From the sequence record SRR20825006_194: a DNA stretch of 64,000 nt. One strand, written 5' to 3'. Positions 17,951-47,982 of the stretch are shown here, one piece after another (within the stretch, counting starts at the first letter, position 1; the number at the start of each line of letters is the position of its first letter). The notes beneath the pieces were generated by a model that worked only from the letters and a program-made list of their open reading frames with translations, searched no databases and was not told the DNA's origin. A program made the position numbers and the translations under genes.

Positions 17951-19162
17951 TTATGAATTGATATTATGAGTAATACCAAGTTCAAGACCGCGCAACTCTG
18001 CTAAACCCCTAAGCCGACCTATAGCAGAATACCCATGAAAGGTAACTTTTTTATTTAGGTCGTCGAGCATTTGGTGCCCGTGGTCTGGCCGAAATGGAAT
18101 TTCTAAATCATCTCTTCCCTCCGATTTACGTCTTTGCGACTCTAAAACGAGCGCTTTCATTACCGCGTACATATCTACACTGCCGTTTAAATGGTCTGCC
18201 TCGTGGAAACTTCCATTACCTTCGCGTTGTACATTTCGTAAATGCACAAAATGGATTTTATGTCCTAATCGCTCAATAATTCCAGGTAAATCATTTTCTG
18301 GTAGAGGTCCTAAAGAACCGGTGCAATAAGTAATTCCGTTTGCCGGGCTATCAATCGTTTGCGTTAAAGCAAGCAAATCAGCCTCCGTAGATACAATTCT
18401 TGGTAAACCAAAAATTGCAGTAGGTGGATCATCAGGATGGCAACATAATTTCATTCCCAACTCTTCAGCTGTTGGCACTACATTTCTTAAAAAGTAACTC
18501 AGATTCTCGCGAAGTATCTCTTCGGAAATATGATCGTATTCGGCTAATTGCTTTTTATAGTCCTCGATGGTGAACACATCACCTGAACCGGGAACGCCTT
18601 GGAGGATATTTTTAGTTAGCTGGGCTTTTTCTTCATCCGTTATGCAATTAAAATACGAGGAGGCTTCTATTTGCCTATCTTCTGTGTAATCAGCTTTGGC
18701 ATATTCCCTTTCTAAAATATGGATATCGAAAGCGGCTAGTGCAATGGCATCGTAGCGTAAAGCTTTTGACCCATCTTTATATGTGAATGTTAGATCTGTG
18801 CGAGTCCAATCTAAAACGGGCATAAAATTATAGCAAACTATCTTTATGCCACATTTAGCCAAATTCTGTAATGAAATTATATAATCTTCAATCAGCTGAT
18901 CTCTTTCAGGCAGGCCTTTTTTTATGGCTTCATGTACATTTAAACTCTCAACAACGGCCCATTTAAGGTTTCGTGGTTGTTGAGTTTCTTCGTTCCATTC
19001 AATAATTCGTTGGCGCTTTTGAATTTCTTCCACTGTCCAAACCTCACCTACTGGAACATGATGCAGTGCATGAACGATTCCGTAGGCTCCAGCTTGTTCA
19101 ATATCTGAAAGAGAAACAATATCGTTTGGTCCGTACCAACGCCAAGATTGCATTAACGCCAT
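17951..19162 (-). CDS. uxuA: Mannonate dehydratase
   Basis: MQSWRWYGPND, CYNFMPVLDWTRT, HPDDPP, HLRNV, RPDHGH, GYSAIGRLRGLAELRG. Start trimmed to ATG 19162. Confidence 0.95.
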   Translation of the reverse strand: MALMQSWRWYGPNDIVSLSDIEQAGAYGIVHALHHVPVGEVWTVEEIQKRQRIIEWNEETQQPRNLKWAVVESLNVHEAIKKGLPERDQLIEDYIISLQNLAKCGIKIVCYNFMPVLDWTRTDLTFTYKDGSKALRYDAIALAAFDIHILEREYAKADYTEDRQIEASSYFNCITDEEKAQLTKNILQGVPGSGDVFTIEDYKKQLAEYDHISEEILRENLSYFLRNVVPTAEELGMKLCCHPDDPPTAIFGLPRIVSTEADLLALTQTIDSPANGITYCTGSLGPLPENDLPGIIERLGHKIHFVHLRNVQREGNGSFHEADHLNGSVDMYAVMKALVLESQRRKSEGRDDLEIPFRPDHGHQMLDDLNKKVTFHGYSAIGRLRGLAELRGLELGITHNINS

Positions 19163-19166
19163 ATTA

Positions 19167-19973
19167 TTAAACTCCACTAAAAGCGCTGAATCCACCATCG
19201 ATAGGAAGTACTGCACCCGTTATAAATTTCGATTCAGGGCTGCATAAAAATAATACTGCGCCGTTAATTTCTTCTTCTTTTCCAAAACGTTTCATTGGGG
19301 TATTTTGGATGATGGTATTGCCACGTTCAGTATACGAGCCATCTTCGTTCAGCAATAAAAATCGATTCTGTTCGCCGATAAAGAACCCTGGAGCAATGGC
19401 ATTTACTCGGATGCCTTCCCCAAATTTCAATGCCATTTCTACAGCTAACGACTTCGTGAAATTTTCCATCGCTGCTTTTGATGCCGAATAGCCAATTACA
19501 CGAGTAATAACTCGGTCGGCCGCCATCGAAGAGATATTCAACACAATACCTTCTTTCTTATCTGCGAAAACTTTTCCAAAAACTTGGCTCGGTAAAACGG
19601 TACCCATTAAATTCAGACGAGATACAGCTTCAAAATCGTCCGTTGAGATATCAAAAAATGTTTGATCAGGAGCAATGGTGGCTCCTTTCTTATTTCCGCC
19701 AGCAGCATTAATTAGGATATCAATGGTTCCAAATTCATCGAGAATTTTCTGTTTTGCTGAATTGAGTCCTTCAATACTTAATACATTGGTAGCGATACAT
19801 AAGGTAGCCTTTGAGCTTGGATCAATTTCATCGGCCTTTGCCTGTAGCGTATCTAACGTCCTGCCAATAAGTACCACTTTAGCGCCTTCATTTATAAATG
19901 CTTTGGCAATACTTCCCCCTAGGGTTCCACTCCCACCCGTAACAATTACAATTTTATCCTTAAATCGATTCAT
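19167..19973 (-). CDS. uxuB: SDR-type D-mannonate oxidoreductase (fructuronate reductase)
   Basis: TGGSGTLG, NAAGGN, YSASK, RVNAIAPGFFIGEQNR..L, DGGFSAFSGV typical of SDR-type UxuB; adjacent to uxuA. Confidence 0.85.
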   Translation of the reverse strand: MNRFKDKIVIVTGGSGTLGGSIAKAFINEGAKVVLIGRTLDTLQAKADEIDPSSKATLCIATNVLSIEGLNSAKQKILDEFGTIDILINAAGGNKKGATIAPDQTFFDISTDDFEAVSRLNLMGTVLPSQVFGKVFADKKEGIVLNISSMAADRVITRVIGYSASKAAMENFTKSLAVEMALKFGEGIRVNAIAPGFFIGEQNRFLLLNEDGSYTERGNTIIQNTPMKRFGKEEEINGAVLFLCSPESKFITGAVLPIDGGFSAFSGV

Positions 19974-20046
19974 GTAGTTGATTTTTGATTCTGTTAAAAT
20001 TTTTACAGCAATTTATGGAACAATTTTGGAAAATCGGTTGCTCCAT

Positions 20047-20073
20047 AAAAGCATATTAGGTATAATAAGTATA
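20047..20073 (+). promoter_or_regulatory. 9-bp tandem repeat operator candidate (AAAAGCATA TTAGGTATA ATAAGTATA)
   Basis: The same motif TAGGTATA-N5-TATA recurs at 27721 and 47966. Confidence 0.55.
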
Positions 20074-20100
20074 TATAATAGTGATTCAAAAGAATAAACA

Positions 20101-21087
20101 ATGGAAGCGCTTCTTAAAAAGACATTTTACCTTGCTTTGTTACTAGTTACTATGCTTAGTTGTGGCAAAGTCTCTAGCACCAGAGTTGTTAAACTTGGCC
20201 ATGGATTAGATGTTAGCCATCCCGTACATAAAAGTATGGTGTATATGGCTCAACAGGTTGAGAAAGAATCTAACGGAACTCTTAAGATTGAAATTTATCC
20301 GAGCCAACAATTGGGTACAGAGCGACAGTTGGTAGAGTTGTTGCAAATTGGAAGCTTGGGAATTACAAAAGTCTCTGCTAGCGTGCTTGAAAACTTTGCC
20401 CCTTCCTATAAAGTATTCAGCATTCCTTTCATTTTTAAAAATGAACAACATCGCTTTAATGTTTTAGAGGGTGAAATTGGACAAGAAATTTTAAAAGATG
20501 GTGAAGAGTTTTGGTTTCACGGACTTTGCTTTTATGATGCGGGGAGTCGGAGTTTTTATACCAAAGACAAACCCGTTTACAAACCTGAGGATCTGGAAGG
20601 ACAGAAAATCAGAGTGATGGAGAGCCAAACTGCGATGAACATGGTTCGATCGTTAGGTGGTTCTCCCACTCCGATTTCTTTTGGGGAACTCTACACCGCT
20701 TTACAACAAGGCGTAGTTGATGGAGCCGAAAATAATCCTCCAAGCTTTTACACCTCTCGTCACTACGAAGTGAGCAAATATTACACCATCGATGAACATA
20801 CTGCTGTCCCAGATGTTTTGATTATAAGCACCCATGTTTGGAGTTCATTAAGCCCAGAACATCAGCAAATTTTACAAAAGGCAGCGTTAGAGTCGGCTGA
20901 GTATCAGAAGAAATTATGGAAAGAGGCTAGCGATGAAGCTCTAACGAAAGTACAAGAAGCTGGTGTAGAAATTATCTACCCTGAAAAATCAGCGTTTCAA
21001 GGGAAAGTGCAAGAGCTTTATAAGAGCTACGAAAAAGATCCTCAAATGGATCAATTGATAAAACGCATTCAAAAAGTAGAAGGCTAA
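20101..21087 (+). CDS. dctP: TRAP transporter substrate-binding lipoprotein
   Basis: Lipobox MLSC; IEIYPSQQLG.ER, DAGSRSFY, KIRVM, GELYTALQQGVVDGAENN; conserved Arg of carboxylate-binding DctP. Confidence 0.93.
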   Translation: MEALLKKTFYLALLLVTMLSCGKVSSTRVVKLGHGLDVSHPVHKSMVYMAQQVEKESNGTLKIEIYPSQQLGTERQLVELLQIGSLGITKVSASVLENFAPSYKVFSIPFIFKNEQHRFNVLEGEIGQEILKDGEEFWFHGLCFYDAGSRSFYTKDKPVYKPEDLEGQKIRVMESQTAMNMVRSLGGSPTPISFGELYTALQQGVVDGAENNPPSFYTSRHYEVSKYYTIDEHTAVPDVLIISTHVWSSLSPEHQQILQKAALESAEYQKKLWKEASDEALTKVQEAGVEIIYPEKSAFQGKVQELYKSYEKDPQMDQLIKRIQKVEG

Positions 21088-21596
21088 TGAAACAACTCAT
21101 AACTCGTTTAGATCAACTTCTCGAATACTTGATTATAAGTATTATGGCAGTACTAGTAATTGATGTACTTTGGCAAGTTGCCAGCCGTTTTATTTTGGGA
21201 GATCCCAGCTCTTTTACTGATGAGCTTGCCCGTTTTCTACTCATCTGGCTTAGCCTTTTTGGTGGGGCTTACATGCTGGGTAAAAAAATGCATCTAGCCA
21301 TCGACCTAATTTCCCACAAATTCGATGAACGCAAAGCCCTCAGATATGATAATTTCATTCAAGTAACCATTCTAGTTTTTGCAATTGCTGTATTAGTAAT
21401 TGGTGGGTCTAGGCTCGTATTTGTTACCCTTTTCTTAAACCAAACTTCAGCAGCTTTAGGTGTTCCGTTGGGATATGTTTATATGGTGCTCCCGTTAAGT
21501 GGATTAATTATGTGTACCTATTGCGTTCATTTTATTTTAGAGAACCTAGCAATATCACGTAGTTTAAAAAGCAACACTCAAAAATCAGGAGAATAA
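21087..21596 (+). CDS. dctQ: TRAP transporter small permease
   Basis: WQVASRF...SFTDELARFLLIW...HLAID; 4 TM segments. Confidence 0.92.
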   Translation: MKQLITRLDQLLEYLIISIMAVLVIDVLWQVASRFILGDPSSFTDELARFLLIWLSLFGGAYMLGKKMHLAIDLISHKFDERKALRYDNFIQVTILVFAIAVLVIGGSRLVFVTLFLNQTSAALGVPLGYVYMVLPLSGLIMCTYCVHFILENLAISRSLKSNTQKSGE

Positions 21597-21597
21597 T

Positions 21598-22893
21598 ATG
21601 GGATTTGAAAGCATACTTATTCTCATTCTAGTTTTTGTAGTATTGTTATTTCTACGTGTACCGATTGCGTTTAGCATCGGTTTAGCAACACTGGCAACCA
21701 TCCTCGTGAGCGTTGCTCCTTTACCTGCAGTTACCACGGTAGCGCAAAGAATGGCAACTGGATTAGACAGTTTTACTCTTTTAGCAATCCCTTTCTTCAT
21801 TCTTGCAGGACAATTAATGAATAAAGGTGGCATCGCAAAACGACTGATTGATTTTGCCAAAGTTTTAGTAGGAACACTTCCTGGTGGTTTGGCTTATGTT
21901 AATGTAATTTCAGCCATGCTTTTTGGAGCAATTTCTGGATCAGCCGTTGCCGCAGCTTCAGCAATTGGTGGCATTATGGCTCCACAGATGAAAAAAGAAG
22001 GCTACGATCCTGAATTTGGTGCTGCCATCAATATTACTTCCTCAACAACAGGACTACTAATTCCACCCAGCAATGTTCTAATTGTATATTCGCTAGCAAG
22101 TGGCGGTGTTTCTATCGCAGCTCTATTCCTAGCCGGATACATTCCTGGTTTATTAGTAGGACTTGGCCTGATGGTAACTTCGGGCTACATCGCTTTTCGA
22201 AAAAAGTATAAAGTTGCCGAGCGTGTTTCTCTCAAAACAGCTGTTCTTAGTTTTTTCGATGCTATTCCTAGTTTGTTCCTCATTTTCGTAGTAATTGGTG
22301 GGATAATTGGTGGAATTTTCACAGCTACTGAAGCTGCCGCCATTGCCGTACTCTATGCACTTATACTTTCATTTATCTACAAAGAGATTTCGATTAAAAG
22401 TTTACCCGATGTGCTCTTAGAAGCAGCTAAAACCACATCCATCGTTATGTTATTAATTGCTACTTCGGTTGCGATGTCGTGGGTACTTTCATTCGAAAAT
22501 ATTCCACAGTCCATCTCAGCAGGACTTATTTCACTATTTGATAGTGACATTGCCATCTTACTAGTTATCAATTTGATATTACTTTTTGTTGGTGCTTTTA
22601 TGGACATCACGCCAGCAATTCTCATTTTCACCCCAATATTTTTACCGGTAGCAACTCAGCTTGGTATAGACCCTGTACACTTTGGGATTATAATTGTATT
22701 TAATCTCACCGTAGGTTTATGTACTCCGCCAGTAGGCACCATTCTTTTTGTGGGATGTTCGGTTGCCGATGTTCCCATTACAAAGGTTATAAAACCTTTA
22801 CTCCCTTTATTCTTAGTAATGATTGTCAGTTTAATACTGGTCACTTTTGTGCCAGACCTAAGCCTTTTCTTACCAAGACTCTTTGGTTATTAA
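21598..22893 (+). CDS. dctM: TRAP transporter large permease
   Basis: LLAIPFFILAG.LM..GG, FGAISGSAVA, LLIPPS, GIFTATEA, GLCTPPVG. Confidence 0.95.
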   Translation: MGFESILILILVFVVLLFLRVPIAFSIGLATLATILVSVAPLPAVTTVAQRMATGLDSFTLLAIPFFILAGQLMNKGGIAKRLIDFAKVLVGTLPGGLAYVNVISAMLFGAISGSAVAAASAIGGIMAPQMKKEGYDPEFGAAINITSSTTGLLIPPSNVLIVYSLASGGVSIAALFLAGYIPGLLVGLGLMVTSGYIAFRKKYKVAERVSLKTAVLSFFDAIPSLFLIFVVIGGIIGGIFTATEAAAIAVLYALILSFIYKEISIKSLPDVLLEAAKTTSIVMLLIATSVAMSWVLSFENIPQSISAGLISLFDSDIAILLVINLILLFVGAFMDITPAILIFTPIFLPVATQLGIDPVHFGIIIVFNLTVGLCTPPVGTILFVGCSVADVPITKVIKPLLPLFLVMIVSLILVTFVPDLSLFLPRLFGY

Positions 22894-22904
22894 TTCACAA
22901 TGAA

Positions 22905-24146
22905 ATGAATAGATTCATGAACACAACATTTAAACATACACTTAGAACTGCAGGAATCGGTGTTTTGCTAGCCACTACTTTTGCTTGTTCCTTACAAAGT
23001 GATTTACAGCTAGAAATTACGAACTCAAATACTTTTGGAGTTCAAAATGCTGCCGTTAGCGTTAATTTAGAAAGCTCAAAAATTGTACTTCCTACTGCTT
23101 TTAGCATCGTAGATAGTAAAGGCGCTGAGATTCCGTATCAGTTGGACGATTTGGACCAAAACGGTACCAAAGAAACACTGTTTTTACAGATGACACTGGG
23201 AGCAAATCTCTCTGAAACCCTTAGCATCAAAAAAGCTGATAAAGCTCCTGATTTCACTACTAAGACTGCTGCTGTAATAAAAGTACGTGATAAAGCAGAT
23301 CCTGAAAGCATGCAGATTGGTTCTGATTTCGAGTTTGTTGATAGCTACACTCAGCCTTTCGATTTTAAGCAAGACAACGGTCTTATTTTCTTAGAAGGTC
23401 CTGGTTGGGAATCCGATTTAGTAGGTTATAGATTCTACTTCGATAACCGCAATCGCTTCGACATCTTCGGAAAGAAAACAGGTAAGCCATCACTTGGTTC
23501 CATCACAGAAACCTACCACGAGCGCAGAGATTGGGGTGCCGACATCCTAAAAGTAAATTCATCCTTAGGAATTGGATCTCCTGCTCTTTTCCAAGACAAT
23601 GCTTTTTTCGCTATTGAAAAAACTGGTTTAAGCACACTTGAAACCGTAAGTGACGGCCCGCTTCGTTCTATCATCAAAGTGACTTACCCAAATTGGACGG
23701 TTGGCGACAAAACAATGAATGCAGTGATGAAGTTAGAAATTCATGCACATCACCGTTATACAGAGCTTAGTTTGAAAACTGACGCTGCCGATGACGTTTT
23801 TGCTACTGGTTTGGTAACTCACAAGAATGTGGAAAAAATCAGTATTTCAGAAACACCCGACTACACTTTTGGATATACTTGGGGAAATCAAACAGATTTA
23901 GAAGAAGGTTTAGGAATGGCTGTAATTTTACCAGGAAACTACTCTCCTGAGTATAAAGGTGAATTTCAAGAAAGCTATGTGTTTAGTTTAAATAGCCAAA
24001 ATTCTGAAGTGAAATATCGTTTTTTAGCTGCCTGGGAATTAGAGCCAGAAGCCGTTCGCATCCCAAGTGCAGACAAGTTTGAAGAATATATTGACCAAGT
24101 AGCCAAGCAATGGCAACATCCGTTAAAAGTAACCATCAAAAAGTAA
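22905..24146 (+). CDS. DUF4861-family lipoprotein
   Basis: Lipobox TFAC; IPYQLDDLD.NG, EGPGWESD.VGYRFYFD.RN.FDIFGK, WGADILKV..SLGIG, DGPLRS. Start at 22905 or 22917. Confidence 0.75.
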   Translation: MNRFMNTTFKHTLRTAGIGVLLATTFACSLQSDLQLEITNSNTFGVQNAAVSVNLESSKIVLPTAFSIVDSKGAEIPYQLDDLDQNGTKETLFLQMTLGANLSETLSIKKADKAPDFTTKTAAVIKVRDKADPESMQIGSDFEFVDSYTQPFDFKQDNGLIFLEGPGWESDLVGYRFYFDNRNRFDIFGKKTGKPSLGSITETYHERRDWGADILKVNSSLGIGSPALFQDNAFFAIEKTGLSTLETVSDGPLRSIIKVTYPNWTVGDKTMNAVMKLEIHAHHRYTELSLKTDAADDVFATGLVTHKNVEKISISETPDYTFGYTWGNQTDLEEGLGMAVILPGNYSPEYKGEFQESYVFSLNSQNSEVKYRFLAAWELEPEAVRIPSADKFEEYIDQVAKQWQHPLKVTIKK

Positions 24147-24152
24147 AAGAAT

Positions 24153-24920
24153 ATGTCAGTTTTAGAGAGTTTTTCATTAGCCGGAAAAACAGCGTTAGTA
24201 ACAGGAGCAAGTCGAGGTTTAGGTCAGGCAATGGCCATTGCTTTAGCAGAAGCTGGAGCGGAAGTTATTTGTTCAAGTTCATCTGATGGTGGCTGTAATG
24301 ATACCGTTTCAAAAATAGCGAGCTTAGGTGGAACGGCCCATCAAGTAACAGCAGATCTTAGCAACAGATCTCAGATTGAAACTTTCATTGCCAAAGTTTT
24401 TGAGATTTCGCCTTCAATAGATGTGCTCGTTAATAATGCAGGAACGATAACTCGCCATCCTGCAAAAGAATATCCCCTCGAAGAATGGGATATGGTTCTT
24501 CAAGTAAATCTTGCATCAGTATTTCAACTATGCCAAGCTTTTGGCAGTAAAATGATTGAACGCGGAGGTGGCAAAATTGTGAATGTAGCTTCTCTCCTTT
24601 CGTTTTCAGGTGGGATAACAGTACCAGCTTATACTGCAAGCAAGCACGCAGTTGCAGGACTTACAAAAGCATTGGCAAACGAATGGGCAAAAGATAATAT
24701 CCAAGTTAACGCTATTGCCCCTGGATATTTTAAAACTGACAACACACAAGCGCTACAAGATAACGCTGAACGAAATGAACAAATTACTGCACGAATTCCT
24801 GCTGGTCAGTGGGGAACTCCATCCGACTTAGCTGGAGCTGTCGTGTTTTTAGCTTCGCAAGCAAGCAACTATGTGAATGGCCATACCCTTACCGTAGACG
24901 GCGGTTGGATGGCTCGATAA
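24153..24920 (+). CDS. kduD: 2-dehydro-3-deoxy-D-gluconate 5-dehydrogenase
   Basis: FSLAGKTALVTGASRGLGQ, KIVNVASLLSFSGG..VPAYTASK, ARIPAGQWG.P, VDGGWMAR. Confidence 0.88.
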   Translation: MSVLESFSLAGKTALVTGASRGLGQAMAIALAEAGAEVICSSSSDGGCNDTVSKIASLGGTAHQVTADLSNRSQIETFIAKVFEISPSIDVLVNNAGTITRHPAKEYPLEEWDMVLQVNLASVFQLCQAFGSKMIERGGGKIVNVASLLSFSGGITVPAYTASKHAVAGLTKALANEWAKDNIQVNAIAPGYFKTDNTQALQDNAERNEQITARIPAGQWGTPSDLAGAVVFLASQASNYVNGHTLTVDGGWMAR

Positions 24921-24952
24921 ATTTAATTTTTAATTACAAAAGACCTTTTAAG

Positions 24953-25891: not shown

Positions 25892-25927
25892 ATCACTCTA
25901 ATTTTGTTTAAAGACTCAAATTCCATC

Positions 25928-26575
25928 ATGAAAAAATTATCTTCCATAATTGAGGATGTTAGAAAACGAGCCGCTCTTGCAGTGGTTCGTTTGCCTAATC
26001 CTGAGGATGCAATTCCCGTTACCGAAGCTTTACTAGAAGGTGGAGTGACCGCAATTGAAATCACACTTTCTACACCAAACACTTTTGAAGTAATTGAGCA
26101 AATTAGCTCAACATTCACAGGTGATGCTTTAGTAGGAATTGGCTCGGTTACAAATATTGAACAAGCTGAAAAAGCCATCCAAGCTGGTGCGAAGTATGTA
26201 GTTTGTCCTATTTTCAAACCAGAAATTATTGCTTTTACGGCATCTCATAACATCCCAACCATTCCGGGATGCTTCACACCAACCGAAATACAACATGCCT
26301 ATGAAGCAGGTGCGGAAGTAATTAAAGTCTTCCCTGCTGATTGTTTAGGAATGGCGTTTTTCAAAGGAGTGAAAGCACCTCTGCCCCATCTCAACTTGAT
26401 ACCAACAGGTGGTGTAACACTAACCAACGCTGGAGAATGGCTAAAAAGCGGTGCATTTGCTGTAGGCTTAGGTAGCGCCTTAATGGATAAAAAAGCCATT
26501 CAAGAACGCAATTTCCACATCTTAACATCCAACGCAAAACTTCTGATGGAAACCATCCGTCAGGCTAATAATTAA
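25928..26575 (+). CDS. eda: KDPG/KHG aldolase
   Basis: AVVR, GGV.AIEIT, GIGSV, PGCFTPTEI, IKVFPA, IPTGGV. Start ATG 25928. Confidence 0.93.
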   Translation: MKKLSSIIEDVRKRAALAVVRLPNPEDAIPVTEALLEGGVTAIEITLSTPNTFEVIEQISSTFTGDALVGIGSVTNIEQAEKAIQAGAKYVVCPIFKPEIIAFTASHNIPTIPGCFTPTEIQHAYEAGAEVIKVFPADCLGMAFFKGVKAPLPHLNLIPTGGVTLTNAGEWLKSGAFAVGLGSALMDKKAIQERNFHILTSNAKLLMETIRQANN

Positions 26576-40716: not shown

Positions 40717-40734
40717 CTTAGCCTATATTATTAA

Positions 40735-43281
40735 TTACTTAATGTTGATTTGGACTAACTGCTTAGATGGAATACTTAGCGAAAACCGCTCCCCACCTTT
40801 GCTAATTTTAATCTTTTCTGAACGTACAATTTTACTTCCTACCGATTGTGTAAGCGTATATGTACCTGGTGCAAGTTGCCATATTCTCATTGTTAAATTC
40901 TCAGTACTCTCTGCATAAGAATACAGCTCAACAGAGACTTTTGAAGAATCACTATCTGTAACTAAGAAGGCCATGTCTCTACTTGCATTTTCCCAGCTTA
41001 TAGCGATATACGGCGAAGAACTTTCTGCAATACCATACCCTGTTACCATTGCTTGCAGAATATCCACCTGACGTGAGCTATTTGGACCAACATGAACTCT
41101 ATCTGTATGAATTACCTCACTGCTAATCATTGGCGTATTGTAGCGAACTGTTTCCAAGTATGGTTGCATACCTTCTATAAGAAACTTCTCATTTCCACTT
41201 AAACGATATTTCACAAATGATGAACCGTGAGCCTGAATAAGATTATCGTACTTTGCATTTCCAGTTAGTAGTCTCCAAGTTCCAATCACACTCCAAAAAT
41301 CTGGATTATCCCCTAAAACACTTACTACCCACTCTTCTGAGCCTTTTTCAAAACTGTCTGAATTTTGAGATAGAGCTTTTCTGTGTTTTGAAACTAAATC
41401 GAGATGTTGAGTTATTGGCAATAGATACTTTTCGTCACCTGAAATAGTCCATGTATATAAAAGCTCATCTAATATGGCTGTACTACCATTCCAATCGAAA
41501 TAATCCCAATACATGTTCGCCACGTACCAAGTTGGTTCTGGCCCATTAATCTTACCCGTTGGGAATTCTATTGAGGCTGGAATTATCCCTTTTGATTTGC
41601 CTTTAGTTGTTTTCTGAGATACAGCCAACCAACCATCAGCCCATTCTTCTAAAGCTTTAATTGTTGAGGCATCTTTACTTTTCCATGCATAATATCGCAC
41701 TGCTTTTGCTGCACGTGCATTGTAGGGTACATCTCTGTTCTTTGGCACCTCGGTTTCAATTTCTGTAGAACTAAACCAAGCCGATTTAAAAAATCTAAAT
41801 CCTTCGTCGTTTATTCCTGTCCACAAATTCTTGAAGTAATCTGCTGAATACCCAAGTCGAGTGGTATACTCTTCATCATCACTATAAAACACCATTAATG
41901 GAGCTGTATCTGAAATAAATTCAGAGGAATGTTCAACATCACTTGGATTCTTAGCATAGCCTTTATACACCTTGCTACTATTCCAAACTCCATCTGCTAA
42001 GCGTTTCCAACCTTTGTAGGTTGTTGTATCTCCAGATAGAATAAGTGGAGACCACCATCTTAGAATTTCAACATCATCGCCAAACTTACCGCCAAACTCG
42101 CCATTAGCCGATTGTTGTTCATTTACCCACCAATCAACAGCGCTTTTTAAGCGATTCATTAATTCCCATTGTGCGAACGACCAATCCGGTGCATTTTTTG
42201 GCTTAATCACATTATCAAAACGATCGGGAGTGTCGATTTGTTCACCATTGTACATGCGAACTAAATCACTATTCGGTTGTAACTCTTTCATGCTTTTTAT
42301 GTCTCTGAGTGCAGAAATTTTCTCCTGACCTGAAGCACCTTCTAACCAAAGCCAATAAAGAAGTCTCGTTCTATACCATAAGGCCCGTTCATAGAGCAAG
42401 CTTTCTGAAGCATTTGGTGAACTTAAAACACCATCATAAAGCATGATAGACTGTTTTATGTGGTCGAATAGACTTAATCCTGTTTCTTCAGAAAAATGGC
42501 TCCAACCTCTGTAATAAAAGTACTTCTCGCCTTCTGCTAACAGTTCTAATTGTTGCTTATAGTACGTAGCAAAATTTTGGACTTCACTATCTTTGGTGAA
42601 TGGAGTTATAAACTCAATAACAGACTTGATATCGACTTCACTGTCAAATGAGCCAACGTCTTTCAGTTTTGCTACAATAGGATCTAGTTTAGGACTAGAA
42701 CTTTCAGATTGAACCGGAATTAAAGATAAACCAAGAAGTCTTACTTTGTCGCCTTGGTTACTTAAGTTAATTATTAAACCTTCATCTCTAACTGAAGATA
42801 CAAACTGAGCCACTCTGTACATTTTCTGAATTACAGTTCGAGGCTCAGCGCCTTCACCAAATGTTTGTAATGCATTATCTTGAACCACACCATTCAAAGT
42901 AATTTGCACTGCATTTGAATCTTGCATTCCACCATCGTACCACAAACTAATTTGCCAATCGCCAGCAGGTAAATCAGCTCGGAATGAAAAATTGTTTGCC
43001 AGTACACCGTCTATTAAAAAAGCATTTCTTGAATTTTCCCATTCAGAATGTTCAAAAGATTCTCCTCCACCTTTTAGCCAGCCGTAGCCTTTTTCTTTGG
43101 AGTAAGTAAAGCTTGGAGTCAATGGATGGTTTCCATCTGCTAGTACTGATGTTGAAGCACCTGCATCAAAAAAGTATGAGCTCTGCTCAAATTTAATTGG
43201 TTCAGGTTGGTGTTTAGGAGTGCCAACACAACTGATTGGCATAGATAAAGCAATTAAAAAAACGATGAGGGCTTTAAACAT
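40735..43281 (-). CDS. Large lipoprotein of unknown function (N-terminal galactose-binding-like sandwich plus predicted helical domain)
   Basis: Lipobox PISC; YFFDAG...YSKEKGYGW...ADLPAGDWQI N-domain; Trp/Asp/Glu-rich core (GEFGGKFGDDVEILRWW, DVEHSSEF). Confidence 0.75.
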   Translation of the reverse strand: MFKALIVFLIALSMPISCVGTPKHQPEPIKFEQSSYFFDAGASTSVLADGNHPLTPSFTYSKEKGYGWLKGGGESFEHSEWENSRNAFLIDGVLANNFSFRADLPAGDWQISLWYDGGMQDSNAVQITLNGVVQDNALQTFGEGAEPRTVIQKMYRVAQFVSSVRDEGLIINLSNQGDKVRLLGLSLIPVQSESSSPKLDPIVAKLKDVGSFDSEVDIKSVIEFITPFTKDSEVQNFATYYKQQLELLAEGEKYFYYRGWSHFSEETGLSLFDHIKQSIMLYDGVLSSPNASESLLYERALWYRTRLLYWLWLEGASGQEKISALRDIKSMKELQPNSDLVRMYNGEQIDTPDRFDNVIKPKNAPDWSFAQWELMNRLKSAVDWWVNEQQSANGEFGGKFGDDVEILRWWSPLILSGDTTTYKGWKRLADGVWNSSKVYKGYAKNPSDVEHSSEFISDTAPLMVFYSDDEEYTTRLGYSADYFKNLWTGINDEGFRFFKSAWFSSTEIETEVPKNRDVPYNARAAKAVRYYAWKSKDASTIKALEEWADGWLAVSQKTTKGKSKGIIPASIEFPTGKINGPEPTWYVANMYWDYFDWNGSTAILDELLYTWTISGDEKYLLPITQHLDLVSKHRKALSQNSDSFEKGSEEWVVSVLGDNPDFWSVIGTWRLLTGNAKYDNLIQAHGSSFVKYRLSGNEKFLIEGMQPYLETVRYNTPMISSEVIHTDRVHVGPNSSRQVDILQAMVTGYGIAESSSPYIAISWENASRDMAFLVTDSDSSKVSVELYSYAESTENLTMRIWQLAPGTYTLTQSVGSKIVRSEKIKISKGGERFSLSIPSKQLVQINIK

Positions 43282-43368
43282 GAGAGATTCTATTCCTTCA
43301 AATCATTGTAAAGAGTTTCCTTTTACTTTCGTCAAACACATTCAGCAAAAGGTGAAAAAATTAAATAT

Positions 43369-43392
43369 GGAGGATTCTTTCACAAACCCTCC
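43369..43392 (-). terminator. Internal hairpin/terminator after the TBDT-T9SS pair
   Basis: Minus strand GGAGGGTT-loop-AATCCTCC followed by ATATTTAATTTTTT. Confidence 0.6.
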
Positions 43393-43408
43393 AAAAAAAT
43401 AAATATTA

Positions 43409-44983
43409 CTACTTAATAAGAGTCATTCGTCCGCTATTTACAAAAGAGTGACCTGCTGATACTGCAGTTACTCTGTAGATATATAAACCTGATGCTAAAG
43501 ATGCCGCATCAATCTGGATACTTTGGCTAGCACCAGCGCTTAATCTTTGCGAAGGAACGGTTAATAGTCTCTGGCCCATTACATTATAAACATCAACCTG
43601 AACATTAGCAGCTTGCGCTAAACTAAAGGAGATTTGAGTTGTTGGGTTGAATGGGTTTGGATAGTTACCATGAAGAACAAAAGCACCTGGTACATCTGCA
43701 CCAACTTCTTCTTCGTTAGCTACATGTAAACCACCATGCCAGATTAGAGAACCTAGTTGTTGGCCTGCAACTGCAGCAGTGTAAGAGCTAAAAGAGCTAG
43801 CATAACCAAAATCAAATGGCTCGCCATCAGTTGGAAAATCAGGTTGTTCTCCAGCAGGATCTTGATAGTACGCAGTCATTACATTTAATGGAACTGCAGG
43901 GCCATCTGTGAAAGAAACACTTTCAGAAATATTAGAACTTCCAGAAGTACCTTCTTCAATATAAGCTAATGCTGTTGCATTGAAAGATACTGGTGCATTA
44001 ACAGTGTCTGGGTAGCTATCCATGATTGTTTGGCTACTGTAGATATTGTTATAGCTCATAGTTATTGAAGCTGCTCCTAAAGAGTCAATTTGAGTTTGAG
44101 ATAAAGAATCTACACTAACTACAGAAAGAACTTCATCTTCAGCTTGTGGAATACCATAAAACGCGCCATCAATGATAAGGTTGTTAGTAAAAATTACTTT
44201 TACTGCTTGCCCAAATTCGAAAGCACCATTCTTACCAATATTCACAACTGTGTTATGATTAACTTTAGCGTAGTTAATTTCACCACCAGCATCTCTAAGT
44301 ACTTGGCTAGTTAGGTTATAAAAAGTATTGTTTTCTAATACCAACGTATCAATTTGACTACCACGATCATCAATAGCTCTACCGTTATCAGGACTAGCAG
44401 ATGTACCAATGTTACTGATAACAGAGTTAGTTATAAAAATTCTGTTTCCAGAATTATCAACTCTTAAAGCCGCTTGAGTATCACCATCTAAGTGGCAATC
44501 GTCAATTACAATTCGCACATCATTTTCACTAATACGGATGATTCTTTGGTCACCATTATAAGCGTCTAAATTATCAATACCTGTTATATATAAACCTTTA
44601 AGGGTTAAATCGGCACGTGCTCTAAATGGACGGCTAGATGTTCCACCATCACCTGCTGCTGGAAGTAGAATAGGTCTATCACCAGCACCATCTTCTGCAA
44701 CAATAGTTAATGGGAAGCGATTCTGAATACTTCCTTCAAGGGCATAATACCCTCCTCTTTTTAGCTCATAGACCGTGTTTAAATCTGTTCGCTCTCCACC
44801 AGCTGTTGTATCACTATCAATAGCTTCGTTCAATGTTCCTAAACCTGGCGCTACTTTAACGATACGTTGTGCAACGGCATCAGAACCGGTAAACACTAAT
44901 ACTGCTCCAAGTATTAACAGTTTGGTTGAAAGTTTGTATAACATTGAGTTACTCAAACTTTTCTGGTTTGTATAATTGCTCAT
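43409..44983 (-). CDS. T9SS-secreted right-handed beta-helix-like protein
   Basis: Signal peptide ending AVA-Q; Asn-ladder repeats (ITNSVISNIG, LENNTFYNL, VNHNTVVNIG, FTNNLIID); CTD GNYPNPFNPTT...ASGLYIYRV...RMTLIK; SD AAAGGAGG. Confidence 0.82.
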   Translation of the reverse strand: MSNYTNQKSLSNSMLYKLSTKLLILGAVLVFTGSDAVAQRIVKVAPGLGTLNEAIDSDTTAGGERTDLNTVYELKRGGYYALEGSIQNRFPLTIVAEDGAGDRPILLPAAGDGGTSSRPFRARADLTLKGLYITGIDNLDAYNGDQRIIRISENDVRIVIDDCHLDGDTQAALRVDNSGNRIFITNSVISNIGTSASPDNGRAIDDRGSQIDTLVLENNTFYNLTSQVLRDAGGEINYAKVNHNTVVNIGKNGAFEFGQAVKVIFTNNLIIDGAFYGIPQAEDEVLSVVSVDSLSQTQIDSLGAASITMSYNNIYSSQTIMDSYPDTVNAPVSFNATALAYIEEGTSGSSNISESVSFTDGPAVPLNVMTAYYQDPAGEQPDFPTDGEPFDFGYASSFSSYTAAVAGQQLGSLIWHGGLHVANEEEVGADVPGAFVLHGNYPNPFNPTTQISFSLAQAANVQVDVYNVMGQRLLTVPSQRLSAGASQSIQIDAASLASGLYIYRVTAVSAGHSFVNSGRMTLIK

Positions 44984-45040
44984 ATAAGCCTCCTTTTGGC
45001 TGGTATGTTGTTGTTATCTTAGCATTATTGTGTTGTACTT

Positions 45041-47881
45041 TTAGAACCGGTATCTCAAGCCTACGTCTGCCGTCATTCCAAAAATTTCGTCTTCTCCAGT
45101 GAAAGCTTTCAACCCTGTGTATGAGCTTTCAGATTGGTTAGTAAAATTGTTCACATTCAAAAAGAAGGTGATTGAATCTAGTTTCTTAAATTTCTGATTG
45201 ATGGATAAATCCCAATAACCATAGGTGTCAGAAATAATATCTTCTTGAGCTAAGATTCCTACTCGTTCTAAAATTTCACGTTGGTATGAGTATGAAACTC
45301 GTCCTGAGAAACCGCCTTTTTCATACCCAATGCTTAAACTAGCTACAAAATCTGGTTGGCCTGGTAATTTACCTGCTCTTGATGTGTCTGCATAGATTGG
45401 TCGGAAAGGTGGATTTGGATCATTTCCTACTAATTTCAGGTATGGGAAGAAGGTTTCTGAGTGGATAATTGAAAAATTAGTATTTAATATTAATCCATCT
45501 AATGGCTTAGGTAGAAACCTGAAATCTGTTTGTATATCAAATTCAACACCATAAACAGTAGACTCAGACCCGTTTACAGGTTCAGTAATTCTATAACCAT
45601 TATAATCTCCACCAAATATTCTACTCTCAGTAATGTAATCGATGTCTTTTAGTTTTTTATAGAACGTCCCAACTGTTAAATAACCAATACGGCTATTATA
45701 CAATGATAAGAAGGCATCGTAGTTTAAAGCAGTAGTATGCTTAATATTTGGATTTCCTCGGGCAACAGTTTGCTCAGCATCATTAATAAGTTCGGATGGA
45801 ATCAAGTTATAGTAATCTGGGCGAGAAAGTGTTTTTGTAGCAGCAAGACGTAAGCTAATTCCATCGGAAATATCAACCTTAACATGTACCATAGGTAGTA
45901 ATTCACCATATTTTTGTCCCCCTGTTGTATCCATTAATGTCCCCGAGCTACCTAAATTACCTCTTATTGACCCCGCAACTCCTTCATAGTAATTTTCAGT
46001 CCATTCATAGCGAACTCCAGGTAGAATCATAATTCTTTTCCCTAAATTAATCTCAGCCATTAGGTAGGCGGCGTTAATTTTCTCGCCAGCTGTATAATCA
46101 CCAAGCTCAAATATTCTATTCAAGAGGTACATATCTTGATAATTTTCATAGAAATTATTCAGCAGGTTGTTATTTAAACCAGGTCCAAACTCGTATCTAC
46201 CATTCATGAAATTTTTGGCTTCAAAGTCTGGATTAATGAAGTTACCAATCCTAATATGCTCATCATTGTATAGATCGTAAGTGTCTGTATTAGCTTGCCC
46301 AATTTCACTTACAACATTAAAATCTGTTTGATATTGATTGATATCCTCAACCTTCTTCTTATCTCTTATTTTACCACCAAATTTTACAAATCCATCAATT
46401 CCGCTATCAAAGTTAAATGGAACTTTAAAGTTTGCTTCTGCTGTATAATTTCTATCTGTACCTCTTTCTGGATTGTACGTGCTATATAAAAAATATGTCC
46501 TGCTTAAATCATTTTTAGCAAACTGTGGAATGGGCTCTGGTCCTAGATTATCTATCAGACCTGTTTGATATGCTGTAAGTTCTTGGAAGCGAGAGTATAC
46601 AGAATATGGCTGCTTTCTTAATGAATATGAATTGGTGAGCTGCCAGTCAATTACAATCCAACTTAGTTTATGCTCAGCTCTAAGTGAATTAGAGTACACT
46701 TGGCTGTTTATGGTTCTATCCCTTAAATCATACTCAACTCTACCATTACTTACTCGGTAGCGTTTTCTTCTTCTCACTTCATCTCTATCTGTCCTGCCCC
46801 AAAAACTATTTAAATAAAACTTGGTAGCGTCCAAGTCGTAATCTAGAGCTAAACTTGCCCCATACCGATCTCTTTCTTCTTGAATATCAGCAAGGTTTAG
46901 GTTGTCAATTTCTACGCTTTCACTTTCTTGACGATAAGAGTAATCTGCATCTAATAAGTCTGAACTTCTATTTGCCTTCTGAACACTACCAGTAAGTAAA
47001 ACCCCTAGCTTATCATCAAAAAATCTATCACTTAAATTCAGACTGAATTTGTACTGTCCGTATTCGTTTTCTAAATCATTATAACCTGTTTGGAGGCGCA
47101 AATCGCCTTTAAAACCCGCAGGAGCCTTTCTAACCAATAGGTTTACAGTACCTCCAATCGCATCTCCATCTTTATCTGGAGTTAATGCTTTATATACCTC
47201 AATTCCACCCAATACATCTGATGGAATTAAACTTAAATCTACCGATCTATCATTTGGATCCGATCCTGGTAAGCGGACACCATTAACTGTAATTGAATTA
47301 AATTTGGGAGACAATCCTCGTACTACAATTTTTGATGCTTCACCCGCATTACGCTGAACGGAAACACCAGGTAAACGCCCAATAGATTCTGCCGCATTTT
47401 GATCCGGGAGCTCACTTATACGCTCAGCAGAAACTACATTCACTATGGTATTAGAGTTCATTTGGTCTTTAATAGCAGCAGCTTGTCCTAACGCTTGCGC
47501 TCTAATCTCTATAACTTCACCTTCCACAAGCTCTTCTTCTAAAGCTACATCGAACGTTACTGTTTCATTGGCAGTAATGGTGACATCCATTAGTCTCGTC
47601 TTCATCCCCAAAAAAGAAACTCTAACTTTATACGTTCCAACTGGAACTCGTTCTACTATATACTTCCCTTCAAGATCCGTTGCAGCTCCTCTCGATAACT
47701 CCACAATAAAAATATTTGCACCAAAAATAGGGTCGCCATTTGTATACTCTGTTACCACCCCTTGAAGTGTTCCTACATTTTGAGCATACACAGAGCTCGA
47801 AACTAACACCCAAGTAAACATTAAAAGTCCTAGCGATACAAATCGCTTTACTGCTTTTCTTTTTAAGCCTTTTAAAGTCAT
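45041..47881 (-). CDS. TonB-dependent receptor (non-SusC type)
   Basis: Signal peptide, carboxypeptidase-regulatory-like N-domain, plug ISELPDQNAAESIGRLPGVS...VRG, barrel ending GLRYRF. Start ATG 47881 or GTG 47893. Confidence 0.93.
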   Translation of the reverse strand: MTLKGLKRKAVKRFVSLGLLMFTWVLVSSSVYAQNVGTLQGVVTEYTNGDPIFGANIFIVELSRGAATDLEGKYIVERVPVGTYKVRVSFLGMKTRLMDVTITANETVTFDVALEEELVEGEVIEIRAQALGQAAAIKDQMNSNTIVNVVSAERISELPDQNAAESIGRLPGVSVQRNAGEASKIVVRGLSPKFNSITVNGVRLPGSDPNDRSVDLSLIPSDVLGGIEVYKALTPDKDGDAIGGTVNLLVRKAPAGFKGDLRLQTGYNDLENEYGQYKFSLNLSDRFFDDKLGVLLTGSVQKANRSSDLLDADYSYRQESESVEIDNLNLADIQEERDRYGASLALDYDLDATKFYLNSFWGRTDRDEVRRRKRYRVSNGRVEYDLRDRTINSQVYSNSLRAEHKLSWIVIDWQLTNSYSLRKQPYSVYSRFQELTAYQTGLIDNLGPEPIPQFAKNDLSRTYFLYSTYNPERGTDRNYTAEANFKVPFNFDSGIDGFVKFGGKIRDKKKVEDINQYQTDFNVVSEIGQANTDTYDLYNDEHIRIGNFINPDFEAKNFMNGRYEFGPGLNNNLLNNFYENYQDMYLLNRIFELGDYTAGEKINAAYLMAEINLGKRIMILPGVRYEWTENYYEGVAGSIRGNLGSSGTLMDTTGGQKYGELLPMVHVKVDISDGISLRLAATKTLSRPDYYNLIPSELINDAEQTVARGNPNIKHTTALNYDAFLSLYNSRIGYLTVGTFYKKLKDIDYITESRIFGGDYNGYRITEPVNGSESTVYGVEFDIQTDFRFLPKPLDGLILNTNFSIIHSETFFPYLKLVGNDPNPPFRPIYADTSRAGKLPGQPDFVASLSIGYEKGGFSGRVSYSYQREILERVGILAQEDIISDTYGYWDLSINQKFKKLDSITFFLNVNNFTNQSESSYTGLKAFTGEDEIFGMTADVGLRYRF

Positions 47882-47931
47882 AAAGCCATACACATTTTAC
47901 GTTGATCATTTATTAAAATAGAAGGCCAAAA

Positions 47932-47947
47932 TTCGAAGCGCTTCCAA
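47932..47947. promoter_or_regulatory. LacI-type palindromic operator candidate TTCGAAGCGCTTCCAA
   Basis: Perfect GAAGCGCTTC palindrome with central CG; second copy TGGAAGCGCTTC at 20102-20113. Confidence 0.6.
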
Positions 47948-47982
47948 AGTGTATGCTCAATATGCTAGGTATACTTTATATA
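47947..47982 (+). promoter_or_regulatory. 9-bp tandem repeat operator candidate (AAGTGTATG CTCAATATG CTAGGTATA CTTTATATA)
   Basis: Four phased 9-mers ending TAT(A/G) upstream of the TBDT operon; shares TAGGTATA-N5-TATA with the other two sites. Confidence 0.55.

Follow-up and report, generated by a model that had tools for sequence, protein, structure and literature searches.

The segment at positions 17951-47982 of sequence record SRR20825006_194 probably represents, judged from its sequence, a single regulon: a TonB-dependent locus lacking SusD, whose substrate would be an unsulfated glycan rich in uronic acids, with beta-glucuronate and probably also a 2-acetamido sugar in beta-linkage. 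It lies in a stretch of 64,000 nucleotides, referred to here as the window, and combines genes of hexuronate catabolism with a minus-strand uptake and carbohydrate-active enzyme (CAZyme) array of 11 genes, which runs from a TonB-dependent transporter (TBDT) through to a sodium:solute symporter (SSS) family transporter with gaps of at most 127 bp. Within this array a surface-sorted beta-helix protein accompanies the TBDT, and an 848-aa lipoprotein of no known family accompanies a glycoside hydrolase (GH) of the GH105 type.

Family calls were made on the open reading frames (ORFs) of the window as Pfam and NCBIfam profile scores against the model cut-offs, and the gene content listed in a preliminary description of the stretch was reproduced by the ORF, Pfam and NCBIfam scans (Table 1). 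For comparison we used 80 related loci, picked by their homologue of the 848-aa protein, taken with 10-kb flanks and searched by tblastn with the window proteins; in window-like arrangements the hexuronate half falls outside these flanks. The reference genomes included the nearest one (G001, 99% complete, sharing 56% of words with the window and 96% identity over the 848-aa gene) and a complete chromosome from a different genus (G051, with 52-84% protein identity to the window locus). Identity in the 848-aa protein amounts to 96% with an uncultured Balneolaceae metagenome-assembled genome (MAG; locus L004) and to 90-93% with three Balneola MAGs, and on these identities the source organism is a marine Balneola-type member of the Balneolaceae. 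G+C content is even over the whole window (0.35-0.41) and thus does not indicate a foreign island.

A shared promoter motif and a conserved gene order join the two halves

Comparison of sequences indicates that the hexuronate half and the CAZyme/TBDT half very probably form one co-regulated acidic-glycan locus, in agreement with the preliminary description, which had proposed a single co-regulated and co-conserved locus independent of SusC/SusD. The shared motif that it had noticed in three promoter regions was recovered: with at most one mismatch, TAGGTATANNNNRTATA has three matches in 64 kb (20057, 27721 and 47966), all in promoter regions, where 0.18 would be expected, and none of 100 shuffles reached three. 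Against this stands that the statistic is post hoc, since the pattern was built from the same three sites. The intergenic regions have TAGGTATA in common, followed by a second (A/G)TATA. Allowing again one mismatch, the 17-mer is also present upstream of the TBDT gene in 18 of the 80 related loci (L004-L015, L017-L020, L046 and L065), with protein identities to the window of 90-100% for L004-L007 and 50-60% for the remaining 14, and upstream of the regulator gene in G051, L056 and L057. In G051, all three orthologous promoter regions carry the motif, two of them as tandem repeats with 9-nt spacing, the uxuB/dctP region among the tandem cases. Conservation in orthologous promoters therefore provides independent support beyond the post hoc statistic.

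Gene order points the same way. The whole succession uxuAB-TRAP-DUF4861-kduD-cupin-eda-kdgK-regulator-SSS through to the TBDT gene is kept over 34 kb in G051 and G067, TRAP, regulator and KduD genes lie immediately upstream of the TBDT gene in L020, and among 61 sampled genomes of the family the five with an 848-aa gene all possess uxuA, compared with 25 of 61 overall. That a hexuronate/KDG (2-dehydro-3-deoxy-D-gluconate) operon (17951-28870) and an unrelated CAZyme/TBDT operon (28942-47893) adjoin by chance is very improbable. UxaC-positive relatives such as G064 do have their hexuronate genes in a different arrangement with a second LacI-type regulator, and uxuA and the 848-aa gene are on separate contigs in G017, G019 and G030; but in the window the motif occurs solely at the three promoters, each of which carries it in another genus too, both halves keep their order in two genomes, the hexuronate genes directly adjoin the CAZyme operon in G064 too, and at least seven relatives have uxaC at a distance of 14-20 kb, an eighth having it inside the locus. 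A sigma-70 promoter scan gave no enrichment (39 found against 50.5 expected; 38 against 39), and the terminator scan was noisy.

A TBDT is paired with a secreted beta-helix protein

The preliminary description had seen a TBDT of non-SusC type and no SusD at the locus, which the TIGR01782, TIGR04056 and Pfam scores bear out. The transporter has Pfam Plug and barrel domains and is placed outside SusC by its 49.9 bits against the SusC model TIGR04056 (cut-off 368.25), a match confined to the N-terminus, and none of the locus ORFs of at least 100 aa, which the SusD test covered, matched the SusD_RagB or SusD-like Pfam models. Three SusD matches are found elsewhere in G001. The adjacent susC-like/susD-like pair that defines a polysaccharide utilisation locus (PUL) of the SusC/SusD type is missing from the locus. 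As had also been noted, no locus ORF matched a model for a polysaccharide lyase (PL), a sulfatase, UxaC or NagA.

The protein encoded next to the TBDT, in 25 of the 26 related loci that hold both genes, is a type A cargo of the type IX secretion system (T9SS), as indicated by TIGR04183 (37.9, cut-off 23) in addition to the Pfam sorting domain. Its AlphaFold2 (AF2) model, built with 24 orthologues (pLDDT 81.9), combines a right-handed parallel beta-helix with the T9SS sorting domain. By VIA-align the best match, by a wide margin, is 7dmk_A (BcAlyPL6; Z 32.8, root-mean-square deviation (rmsd) 2.2 over 293 residues, 20% identity, chain residues 427-747), followed by 5gkd_A (AlyGC; Z 25.2, chain residues 440-727) and generic beta-helix enzymes (Z 17-24), and Foldseek agrees with the PL6 match (E 1.3e-7). 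A PDB sequence search with this protein returned nothing, a profile search found the T9SS tail alone, and no Pfam lyase model matched. In an active PL6 lyase the catalytic N-terminal beta-helix contains a Lys/Arg pair and a Ca site. According to the available text of PMC12992946, the C-terminal domain of two-domain PL6 lyases is non-catalytic, binds polyguluronate and shapes the N-terminal active site. Because the matched PL6 residue ranges are those of this polyuronate-binding domain, we read the beta-helix protein as a binder: the model makes it rather likely that it is a free-standing, surface-anchored copy of such a domain, standing in for SusD or a surface glycan-binding protein.

The opposite assignment, in which the beta-helix protein is a true, distantly PL6-like lyase and the 848-aa protein an accessory exo-enzyme or binding protein, is unlikely. 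In its favour, PL1, PL3, PL6 and PL9 lyases have the parallel beta-helix fold, the nearest structures are PL6 entries, the protein goes to the cell surface where endo-cleavage is required, and the family has invariant Arg, Asp and Asn residues along the helix (R150, R174, R202, D205 and R207 among them), which weigh against a pure binder by making catalysis possible. However, the match covers residues 427-747 of PL6 and not the catalytic N-terminal domain, as these domains are described in PMC12992946 so far as its text is available, no Lys or His is invariant in the 24 sequences, and the protein was detected in just 28 of the 80 loci, at least 12 gene orders having GH105 without it. As a separate observation, the hairpin between the beta-helix and 848-aa genes (Table 1) is a possible attenuator, and TBDT and beta-helix protein are perhaps made in excess over the enzymes.

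The 848-aa lipoprotein is a candidate depolymerase tied to GH105

The 848-aa protein has a lipobox but no match in Pfam or NCBIfam, and a PDB profile search returned only the N-terminal domain of YxiM (E 0.0038). Among the 120 homologues in the matches listed, the source names are 'hypothetical protein' or derive from fused domains. Searched against 1.84 billion representatives, its profile recovered 1473 clusters at E<=0.001, of which 471 also pass E<=1e-30; in many, the match is confined to profile positions of about 288-846 and the N-termini differ. In a protein Atlas search it fell into an unnamed cluster of its own, with weak leads to clusters bearing malectin and Pec_lyase domains. The AF2 model (34 sequences; pLDDT 90.6, pTM 0.85) consists of three domains. 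An N-terminal beta-sandwich resembling a carbohydrate-binding module (CBM; residues ~35-190) is followed by a helical region whose final part is an (alpha/alpha)6 barrel (~364-760), and the C-terminus forms a second beta-sandwich. The N-terminal domain resembles B. subtilis YxiM, at Z 15.5 and rmsd 2.3 over 137 residues, and, at Z 12-14.5, the CBM found at the C-terminus of beta-glucuronidases from Bacteroides. For the barrel, Z is 14.7-15.9 to 7tkv (a DsbH-domain protein), GH76 and GH88; a wider set, extending to GH105 and, with poorer agreement, to a PL27-type lyase, spans Z 12.7-15.9 at an rmsd of about 4. Foldseek found low-TM global matches only (chondroitinase ABC, TM 0.13; GH127/146; GH76). 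Invariant residues are numerous in the family and comprise Asp, Glu, His, Arg and Trp.

The most telling clue to its function is genetic and concerns GH105. P0088 (1411 aa) is a full-length fusion of the 848-aa protein (residues 1-837, 40% identity) with an orthologue of the two-domain GH105 protein (835-1408, 44%), and further fusions are found in P0086, a 1408-aa ORF in L021 and the more distant P0147; the separate genes are adjacent in 10 of the 17 loci holding both. The GH105 protein of the locus, itself with a lipobox, has an N-terminal beta-sandwich of about 250 aa in front of the hydrolase domain, an architecture common to all 15 aligned partners, in which the WxDD motif (W378, D380, D381) is likewise invariant. 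It scores 174 bits against PDB 3k11 and then matches YteR/GH105 entries, the nearest solved chains being mostly labelled GH105 or YteR; the GH105 rather than GH88 label used here follows these nearest structures and is not a CAZy family assignment. The substrates of GH105 enzymes are 4,5-unsaturated uronyl ends, and comparison of gene orders in the loci that have GH105 but lack the beta-helix gene revealed no alternative lyase candidate. Owing to the fusions and to these loci, the 848-aa protein is the best candidate for making the unsaturated ends.

Weighing against this assignment, Z values such as those of the barrel are common for helical folds and hence establish the fold class alone, and descent of the protein as a remote GH88/GH105 homologue was rejected by an hhalign probability of 2.5% against the GH105 family; lyase, hydrolase and non-catalytic roles therefore fit the barrel equally well. 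On balance we lean slightly towards a depolymerase that produces unsaturated ends, the alternative being a hydrolase acting before or after GH105. The suggestion in the preliminary description that uncharacterised genes supply the binding, depolymerisation and isomerase steps stands in so far as the models and profiles offer good candidates (the beta-helix protein, the 848-aa protein, and a cupin together with a TIM barrel), and these remain candidates. No Pfam or NCBIfam model of a PL, SusD or UxaC family matched these genes.

A core module is conserved across phyla

Across the 80 loci the most frequent partners of the 848-aa gene were the Nramp-like transporter (39), the GH20-like protein (39), the TIM barrel (37), the NagB-like protein (36) and the TBDT (36), followed by beta-glucuronidase (GUS; 29), the beta-helix protein (28), GH105 (25), SSS (14) and PhyH (8). 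Adjacency was high for GH20-like/TIM barrel (25 of the 27 loci with both) and lower for Nramp-like/TIM barrel (16 of 36). The module of Nramp-like, TIM barrel, GH20-like, GH105, NagB-like and 848-aa genes is present in Ignavibacteria/Melioribacter, KSB1, Fidelibacterota, Rhodothermaceae, Cyclobacteriaceae and other Bacteroidota, with a reduced form in Microbulbifer and Kordiimonas; Balneolaceae and Rhodothermales are also among the carriers. Families that join it elsewhere and are not in the window include GH28 (18 of 80 loci), enolase-superfamily dehydratases (16 of 80) and GATase1-like proteins (13 of 80).

Several loci showed local variants. Among the Balneolaceae relatives, some of L008-L019, L046 and L065 have a GATase1-like gene (PF07090) and a second SSS gene between GUS and TIM barrel (~15.7-18.1 kb), and L010, L012, L015, L017 and L019 a second, divergent GH2 gene between the beta-helix and 848-aa genes (~8.2-9.9 kb). 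In L033, L044, L078 and further loci of Planctomycetota (Bythopirellula and relatives), the 848-aa homologue adjoins PSD1/PSCyt (DUF1553/DUF1549), DUF1501 and DUF1559 genes and is not beside the TBDT module.

Glycosidases and transporters

GUS, TIM barrel and NagB-like protein have no signal peptide, the GH20-like protein has one, and the DUF4861 protein, like the 848-aa and GH105 proteins, carries a lipobox. Since GUS is without a signal peptide, it would act on an imported glucuronide. GUS is assigned at equivalog level, with PF02837, PF00703 and PF02836 all above cut-off. The GH20-like protein has the features of its family: the D309-E310 pair is kept in all 34 orthologues inspected among 37 aligned, and its nearest PDB entries are GH20 hexosaminidases and lacto-N-biosidases (E 1e-14); against the NCBIfam GlcNAcase equivalog it scores 71.2 (cut-off 1000). 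The TIM barrel has weak PDB matches to UlaE and to ketose 3-epimerases. The DUF4861 protein, whose likely true start is Met63 at 22905, with the lipobox following, is homologous to BT3233, which B. thetaiotaomicron requires to grow on chondroitin sulfate, hyaluronan and heparin according to the available text of PMC8121099.

Three inner-membrane transporter types had been proposed, and TRAP (tripartite ATP-independent periplasmic), SSS and Nramp-like proteins are all supported by Pfam. The best solved relative of the Nramp-like protein is the Mg transporter NRMT (7qia, 80.1 bits), and NF037982 is exceeded (77.2, cut-off 50). In canonical Nramp proteins the DPGN (TM1) and MPH (TM6) motifs bind the metal. 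Aligned to these, the locus protein has GTGS for DPGN and MGA for MPH, replacements kept in 39 of 39 orthologues, which makes a metal substrate unlikely; given its fixed position next to the GUS and TIM-barrel genes, it may instead carry a carbohydrate. A gene annotated as Nramp and labelled a metal-ion transporter is also drawn in the alginate cluster of Alteromonas sp. 76-1, in the part of PMC6431674 available, and is perhaps another Nramp linked to a uronate polymer.

Hexuronate and amino-sugar steps: two gaps and their candidates

Both hexuronate branches, uxuB/uxuA and kduD, together with kdgK and eda, were confirmed, the kdgK model scoring below its cut-off; the closest NCBIfam models of the kinase are KDG/KDGal kinases. 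The statement that a canonical kduI is not recognisable needs correction, because a cupin of the KduI/IolB family follows kduD directly (Table 1). This 313-aa protein stays below equivalog level for both KduI (NF002091 45.5, cut-off 250) and IolB (TIGR04378 43.9, cut-off 205), and is the sole KduI-family gene in G001, G051 and G067.

The reported uxaC gap is real: UxaC was not found in G001 (99% complete), in G051 or in five other locus-bearing Balneolaceae genomes (G063, G065, G066, G067 and G070), all of which keep uxuA beside the locus, the last five at ~14 kb from the stretch compared. Glucuronic acid (GlcA) released by GUS thus has no recognised route to fructuronate here, which speaks against the pathway as proposed. 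Elsewhere UxaC is common, in 30 of 38 locus-bearing genomes and often 14-20 kb from the locus, and hexuronate is therefore a genuine product. The TIM barrel was considered as a general replacement of UxaC and rejected, being present both in the genomes with UxaC and in those without. In the UxaC-positive G064, the adjoining hexuronate cluster contains UxaC and a 279-aa KduI-family gene that cannot be aligned with the 313-aa cupin of the window. Of the 40 genomes compared, 8 of the 10 that are UxaC-negative encode the 313-aa type (E<=1e-133), as do 2 of the 30 that are UxaC-positive. Seven of these eight UxaC-negative genomes are Balneolaceae, and few independent events lie behind the pattern; G079, an uncultured Bacteroidetes MAG and the genome of L037, has ~42% identity in the 848-aa protein. 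IolB catalyses the aldose-ketose isomerisation of 5-deoxy-glucuronate, and for this reason the 313-aa cupin is our preferred, if doubtful, candidate for the missing glucuronate isomerase.

The second gap, nagA, was likewise confirmed, no match above the cut-off being present in G001 (best 191.9, cut-off 225.65), G051 or G067, and it counts against N-acetylhexosamine (HexNAc) as a component. A 638-aa fusion of NagB with a PIG-L deacetylase is encoded in G001 (contig C4), G063, G066, G067 and G070, and within the locus in G051, and may cover deacetylation, filling the NagA gap from elsewhere. In G051 this fusion gene and one for a DUF1961 protein are inserted between kdgK and regulator (L091 313-1074 and 1221-3137). 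In G001 the NagB-like protein of the locus ranks as a third paralogue; it is divergent, sharing 28% identity with the one in the fusion, stays below the cut-off of TIGR00502 (109.2 against 236.9) and scores 88.7 bits against PDB 2bkv. All of 35 orthologues retain its DEY and GENGH motifs and the Arg that aligns with the phosphate site.

The substrate and a proposed mechanism

The recognisable enzymes fit a uronic-acid polymer with beta-GlcA and probably beta-HexNAc, as the preliminary description had held. Its further proposal of a glycosaminoglycan (GAG)-like substrate is not borne out, and a GlcA-HexNAc polymer of this kind is for us a tentative reading. GUS, the GH20-like and NagB-like proteins and DUF4861 favour it. 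The type of GH105, with GH28 and DUF1961 in relatives, instead favours a pectin-like or mixed acidic exopolysaccharide, and GH28, the enolase-type dehydratases and the DUF1961 protein of G051, which fit pectin-like or heteropolymeric acidic glycans equally, argue that the polymer need not be GAG-like.

Slightly less probable is a heteropolymer of pectin, ulvan or exopolysaccharide type, built of uronic acids in alternation with neutral or deoxy sugars. GH105 would then free unsaturated uronate from the neutral sugar, which the TIM barrel would isomerise and the Nramp-like protein import. Besides the families just named, such a substrate would suit a hydrolase nearest to GH105/YteR-type enzymes and not to GH88, the YxiM-like N-terminal domain of the 848-aa protein, and complete relatives without a NagA match. 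It sits badly with the conserved D-E pair of the GH20-like protein, with a core that includes this protein (39 of 80 loci) and a NagB-family gene (36 of 80), with a beta-glucuronidase at equivalog level, and with a window in which Pfam detects no rhamnosidase, GH28, or rhamnose/fucose pathway. Balneola has been found repeatedly in phytoplankton cultures, according to the available text of PMC7029141; such an occurrence would be compatible with an algal or cyanobacterial exopolymer as substrate but proves nothing.

The gene assignments suggest how an unsulfated, uronic-acid-rich glycan with beta-glucuronate might be used. The T9SS-anchored beta-helix protein would hold the polymer on the cell surface beside the TBDT, in the place of SusD. 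The 848-aa lipoprotein would cleave it, most likely giving the 4,5-unsaturated ends needed by its obligate partner, and the two-domain GH105 lipoprotein would strip these ends, the GH20-like and DUF4861 proteins also being putatively periplasmic. TRAP, SSS and the Nramp-like protein without a metal site might import one product each, after which cytoplasmic GUS could split the imported beta-glucuronide. The Kdu branch, through the cupin and KduD, and the Uxu branch, through UxuB and UxuA, would meet at KDG, to be followed by KdgK and Eda, and the TIM barrel and NagB-like proteins might handle the non-uronate or amino-sugar part. The AraR-like GntR/LacI hybrid regulator would govern the three promoters through the tandem (A/G)GTATA operator.

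Three elements of this scheme can be taken jointly: the 848-aa protein as a new CAZyme family paired with GH105, the Nramp homologue without a metal site as importer of a sugar acid or glucuronide, and a non-orthologous isomerase feeding the UxaC-less Uxu branch. That all three hold together is possible though short of an even chance, and the first two proteins would then found functional classes not recognised so far; for the isomerase, the 313-aa cupin would be the best candidate and the NagB-like protein, acting on a 2-amino-uronate, the alternative candidate.

Features of the locus and its surroundings

Table 1. Genes and sequence elements of the locus at 17951-47982 (positions in the window; scores in bits).
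Feature	Position	Strand	Evidence
uxuA, D-mannonate dehydratase	17951-19216	-	PF03786 395.8; TIGR00695 520.3 (cut-off 199.55)
SDR-type (short-chain dehydrogenase/reductase) uxuB, D-mannonate oxidoreductase	19167-19973	-	NF006132 348.8 (cut-off 281)
Operator-like motif TAGGTATAATAAGTATA, divergent uxuB/dctP promoter region	20057-20073	+	motif scan
TRAP DctP	20101-21087	+	PF03480 296.6; lipobox-like N-terminus
TRAP DctQ	21087-21596	+	PF04290 95.3
TRAP DctM	21598-22893	+	PF06808 438.3
DUF4861/BT3233-like protein	22719-24146	+	PF16153 255.8
kduD, 2-dehydro-3-deoxy-D-gluconate 5-dehydrogenase	24153-24920	+	TIGR01832 358.1 (cut-off 338.85)
313-aa KduI/IolB-family bicupin, divergent subfamily	24950-25891 (listed ORF from 24809)	+	PF04962 79.2 (cut-off 23.9)
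eda, KDPG (2-dehydro-3-deoxy-6-phosphogluconate) aldolase	25904-26575	+	PF01081 148.4
kdgK-type PfkB sugar kinase	26580-27614	+	PF00294 123.8; NF041332 255.8 (below cut-off)
Operator-like motif TAGGTATATTGGGTATA, upstream of regulator gene	27721-27737	+	motif scan
Regulator, N-terminal GntR helix-turn-helix (HTH) and C-terminal LacI/GalR-type sugar-binding (Peripla_BP) domain	27764-28870	+	PF00392 46.7; PF13377 127.7
SSS family transporter	28942-30705	-	PF00474 118
Two-domain GH105-type lipoprotein	30671-32455	-	PF07470 220.5 (cut-off 26.6), residues 253-586
PhyH-family Fe/2-oxoglutarate dioxygenase	32482-33348	-	PF05721 90.6
Divergent NagB-family deaminase/isomerase	33302-34057	-	PF01182 60.8
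GH20-like exported glycosidase	34073-36646	-	PF02838 75.5 (cut-off 26.1); PF00728 59 (cut-off 22.3)
Xylose-isomerase-like TIM barrel (ketose epimerase/isomerase superfamily), cytoplasmic	36643-37557	-	PF01261 109.3
GH2 beta-glucuronidase (GUS)	37576-39429	-	NF007538 594.6 (cut-off 544)
Nramp-family transporter	39463-40716	-	PF01566 188.6
848-aa lipoprotein, no known family	40735-43281	-	no Pfam/NCBIfam match; predicted-structure model
10-bp-stem hairpin with T-rich tail, between beta-helix and 848-aa genes	43368-43393	-	consensus scan only
T9SS-sorted right-handed beta-helix protein	43409-44983	-	PF18962 40.1 (cut-off 27); DUF4957 27.8 (below cut-off)
TBDT, Xanthomonas/Caulobacter subfamily, N-terminal CarboxypepD_reg	45041-47893	-	TIGR01782 446.3 (cut-off 310)
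Operator-like motif TAGGTATACTTTATATA, 73 bp upstream of TBDT start	47966-47982	+	motif scan

The locus is flanked by genes for a PAS histidine kinase and threonyl-tRNA synthetase (ThrRS) at one end, and by genes for a 434-aa protein without family and a T9SS protein at the other. The latter, a 732-aa T9SS-sorted protein (14146-16344, +), matches no family except in its T9SS tail and adjoins uxuA in G067 too, where it is syntenic and 68.6% identical; the 434-aa protein (16454-17758, -) is Ala/Glu/Asn-rich and lipoprotein-like. The 80 related loci yielded neither of the two, perhaps because their flanks are too short. Also outside the locus, the window encodes a GKRP/MurQ-like SIS protein (1543-2472, -), a classical LacI regulator (4394-5410, +) and an alkaline-phosphatase-superfamily protein (10148-11245, +), the last being the sole sulfatase-like signal of the window at a sub-threshold 19.4 bits (cut-off 25).

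Relation to known systems

Acidic polysaccharides from phytoplankton and bacteria make up a large, poorly resolved share of marine carbon turnover. PULs are predicted mostly via SusC/SusD pairs and known CAZy families, and the multi-phylum module conserved here, made up of the six-gene core together with the TBDT and the T9SS beta-helix protein, escapes such screens. The locus offers candidates for a new CAZyme family of ~1500 sequence clusters, a non-metal Nramp transporter, a replacement of glucuronate isomerase and a substitute for SusD. In the literature within reach, which excluded paper supplements and subscription journals, we found no description of this architecture or of the 848-aa family, nor of its occurrence in a Bacteroidota-related lineage with SusD genes, the TBDT/T9SS beta-helix pair, an Nramp homologue without a metal site or a Uxu branch without UxaC.

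The preliminary description had nevertheless gone too far in calling the locus an undescribed type of polysaccharide utilisation system. CUT loci, carbohydrate utilisation loci with TonB-dependent receptors, have been described in Xanthomonas and aquatic Proteobacteria (PMC1790865, available text), and a TBDT together with transporters, enzymes and a regulator is that published concept. Here, the TBDT is clustered with TRAP, SSS and Nramp-like transporters, with GH2, GH20-like and GH105 enzymes and with a GntR/LacI regulator; because this arrangement falls within the CUT definition and outside that of SusC/SusD PULs, the system type is not new. Common to both, going by the same text, are a non-SusC TBDT of the Xanthomonas/Caulobacter subfamily, inner-membrane transporters, enzymes and a regulator, and the lack of SusD. 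The locus differs in its host, a Bacteroidota-related member of the Balneolaceae that uses SusC/SusD elsewhere, and in a TBDT that has a SusC-style CarboxypepD_reg N-terminal domain and is paired with the T9SS beta-helix protein.

With the GAG PULs of Bacteroides and their Kdu pathway, as far as PMC8121099 is available, the locus shares an unsaturated-uronyl hydrolase, DUF4861, KduD/KduI-type steps and KdgK/Eda. In contrast to them it is without PL8, PL12, PL13, sulfatase and SusC/SusD, its hydrolase is GH105-like and not GH88, and it adds GUS, the GH20-like and Nramp-like proteins, the TIM barrel and the 848-aa family. The parallel beta-helix domain corresponds to the C-terminal domain of the PL6 lyases BcAlyPL6 (7DMK), AlyGC (5GKD) and BoPL6, as these are presented in the accessible part of PMC12992946, whereas the locus protein is free-standing, sorted by the T9SS, devoid of a catalytic N-terminal domain, only ~20% identical and a neighbour of a TBDT. 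Likewise, the Nramp-like protein belongs to the same Pfam family as NRMT (7QIA) and MntH/Nramp but differs from them at both metal-binding motifs and in its setting, a sugar-catabolic operon where GUS and a TIM-barrel isomerase are its neighbours.

The hexuronate pathway of E. coli consists of UxaC-UxuB-UxuA and KduI-KduD-KdgK-Eda, and B. subtilis AraR combines a GntR HTH with a LacI/GalR domain. UxuB, UxuA, KduD, KdgK, Eda and the GntR/LacI hybrid regulator all recur in the locus, but in its lineage no UxaC was found, the 313-aa cupin replaces the 281-aa KduI type of the UxaC-positive G064 and G069, and the operator consists of direct repeats in tandem instead of a palindrome. What is new in comparison with these systems is a CUT-type locus in a Bacteroidota-related lineage that also has SusD genes, a conserved pair of TBDT and T9SS beta-helix protein, an 848-aa family with fusions to GH105, an Nramp homologue without a metal site, and a Uxu branch in a lineage where UxaC was not found.

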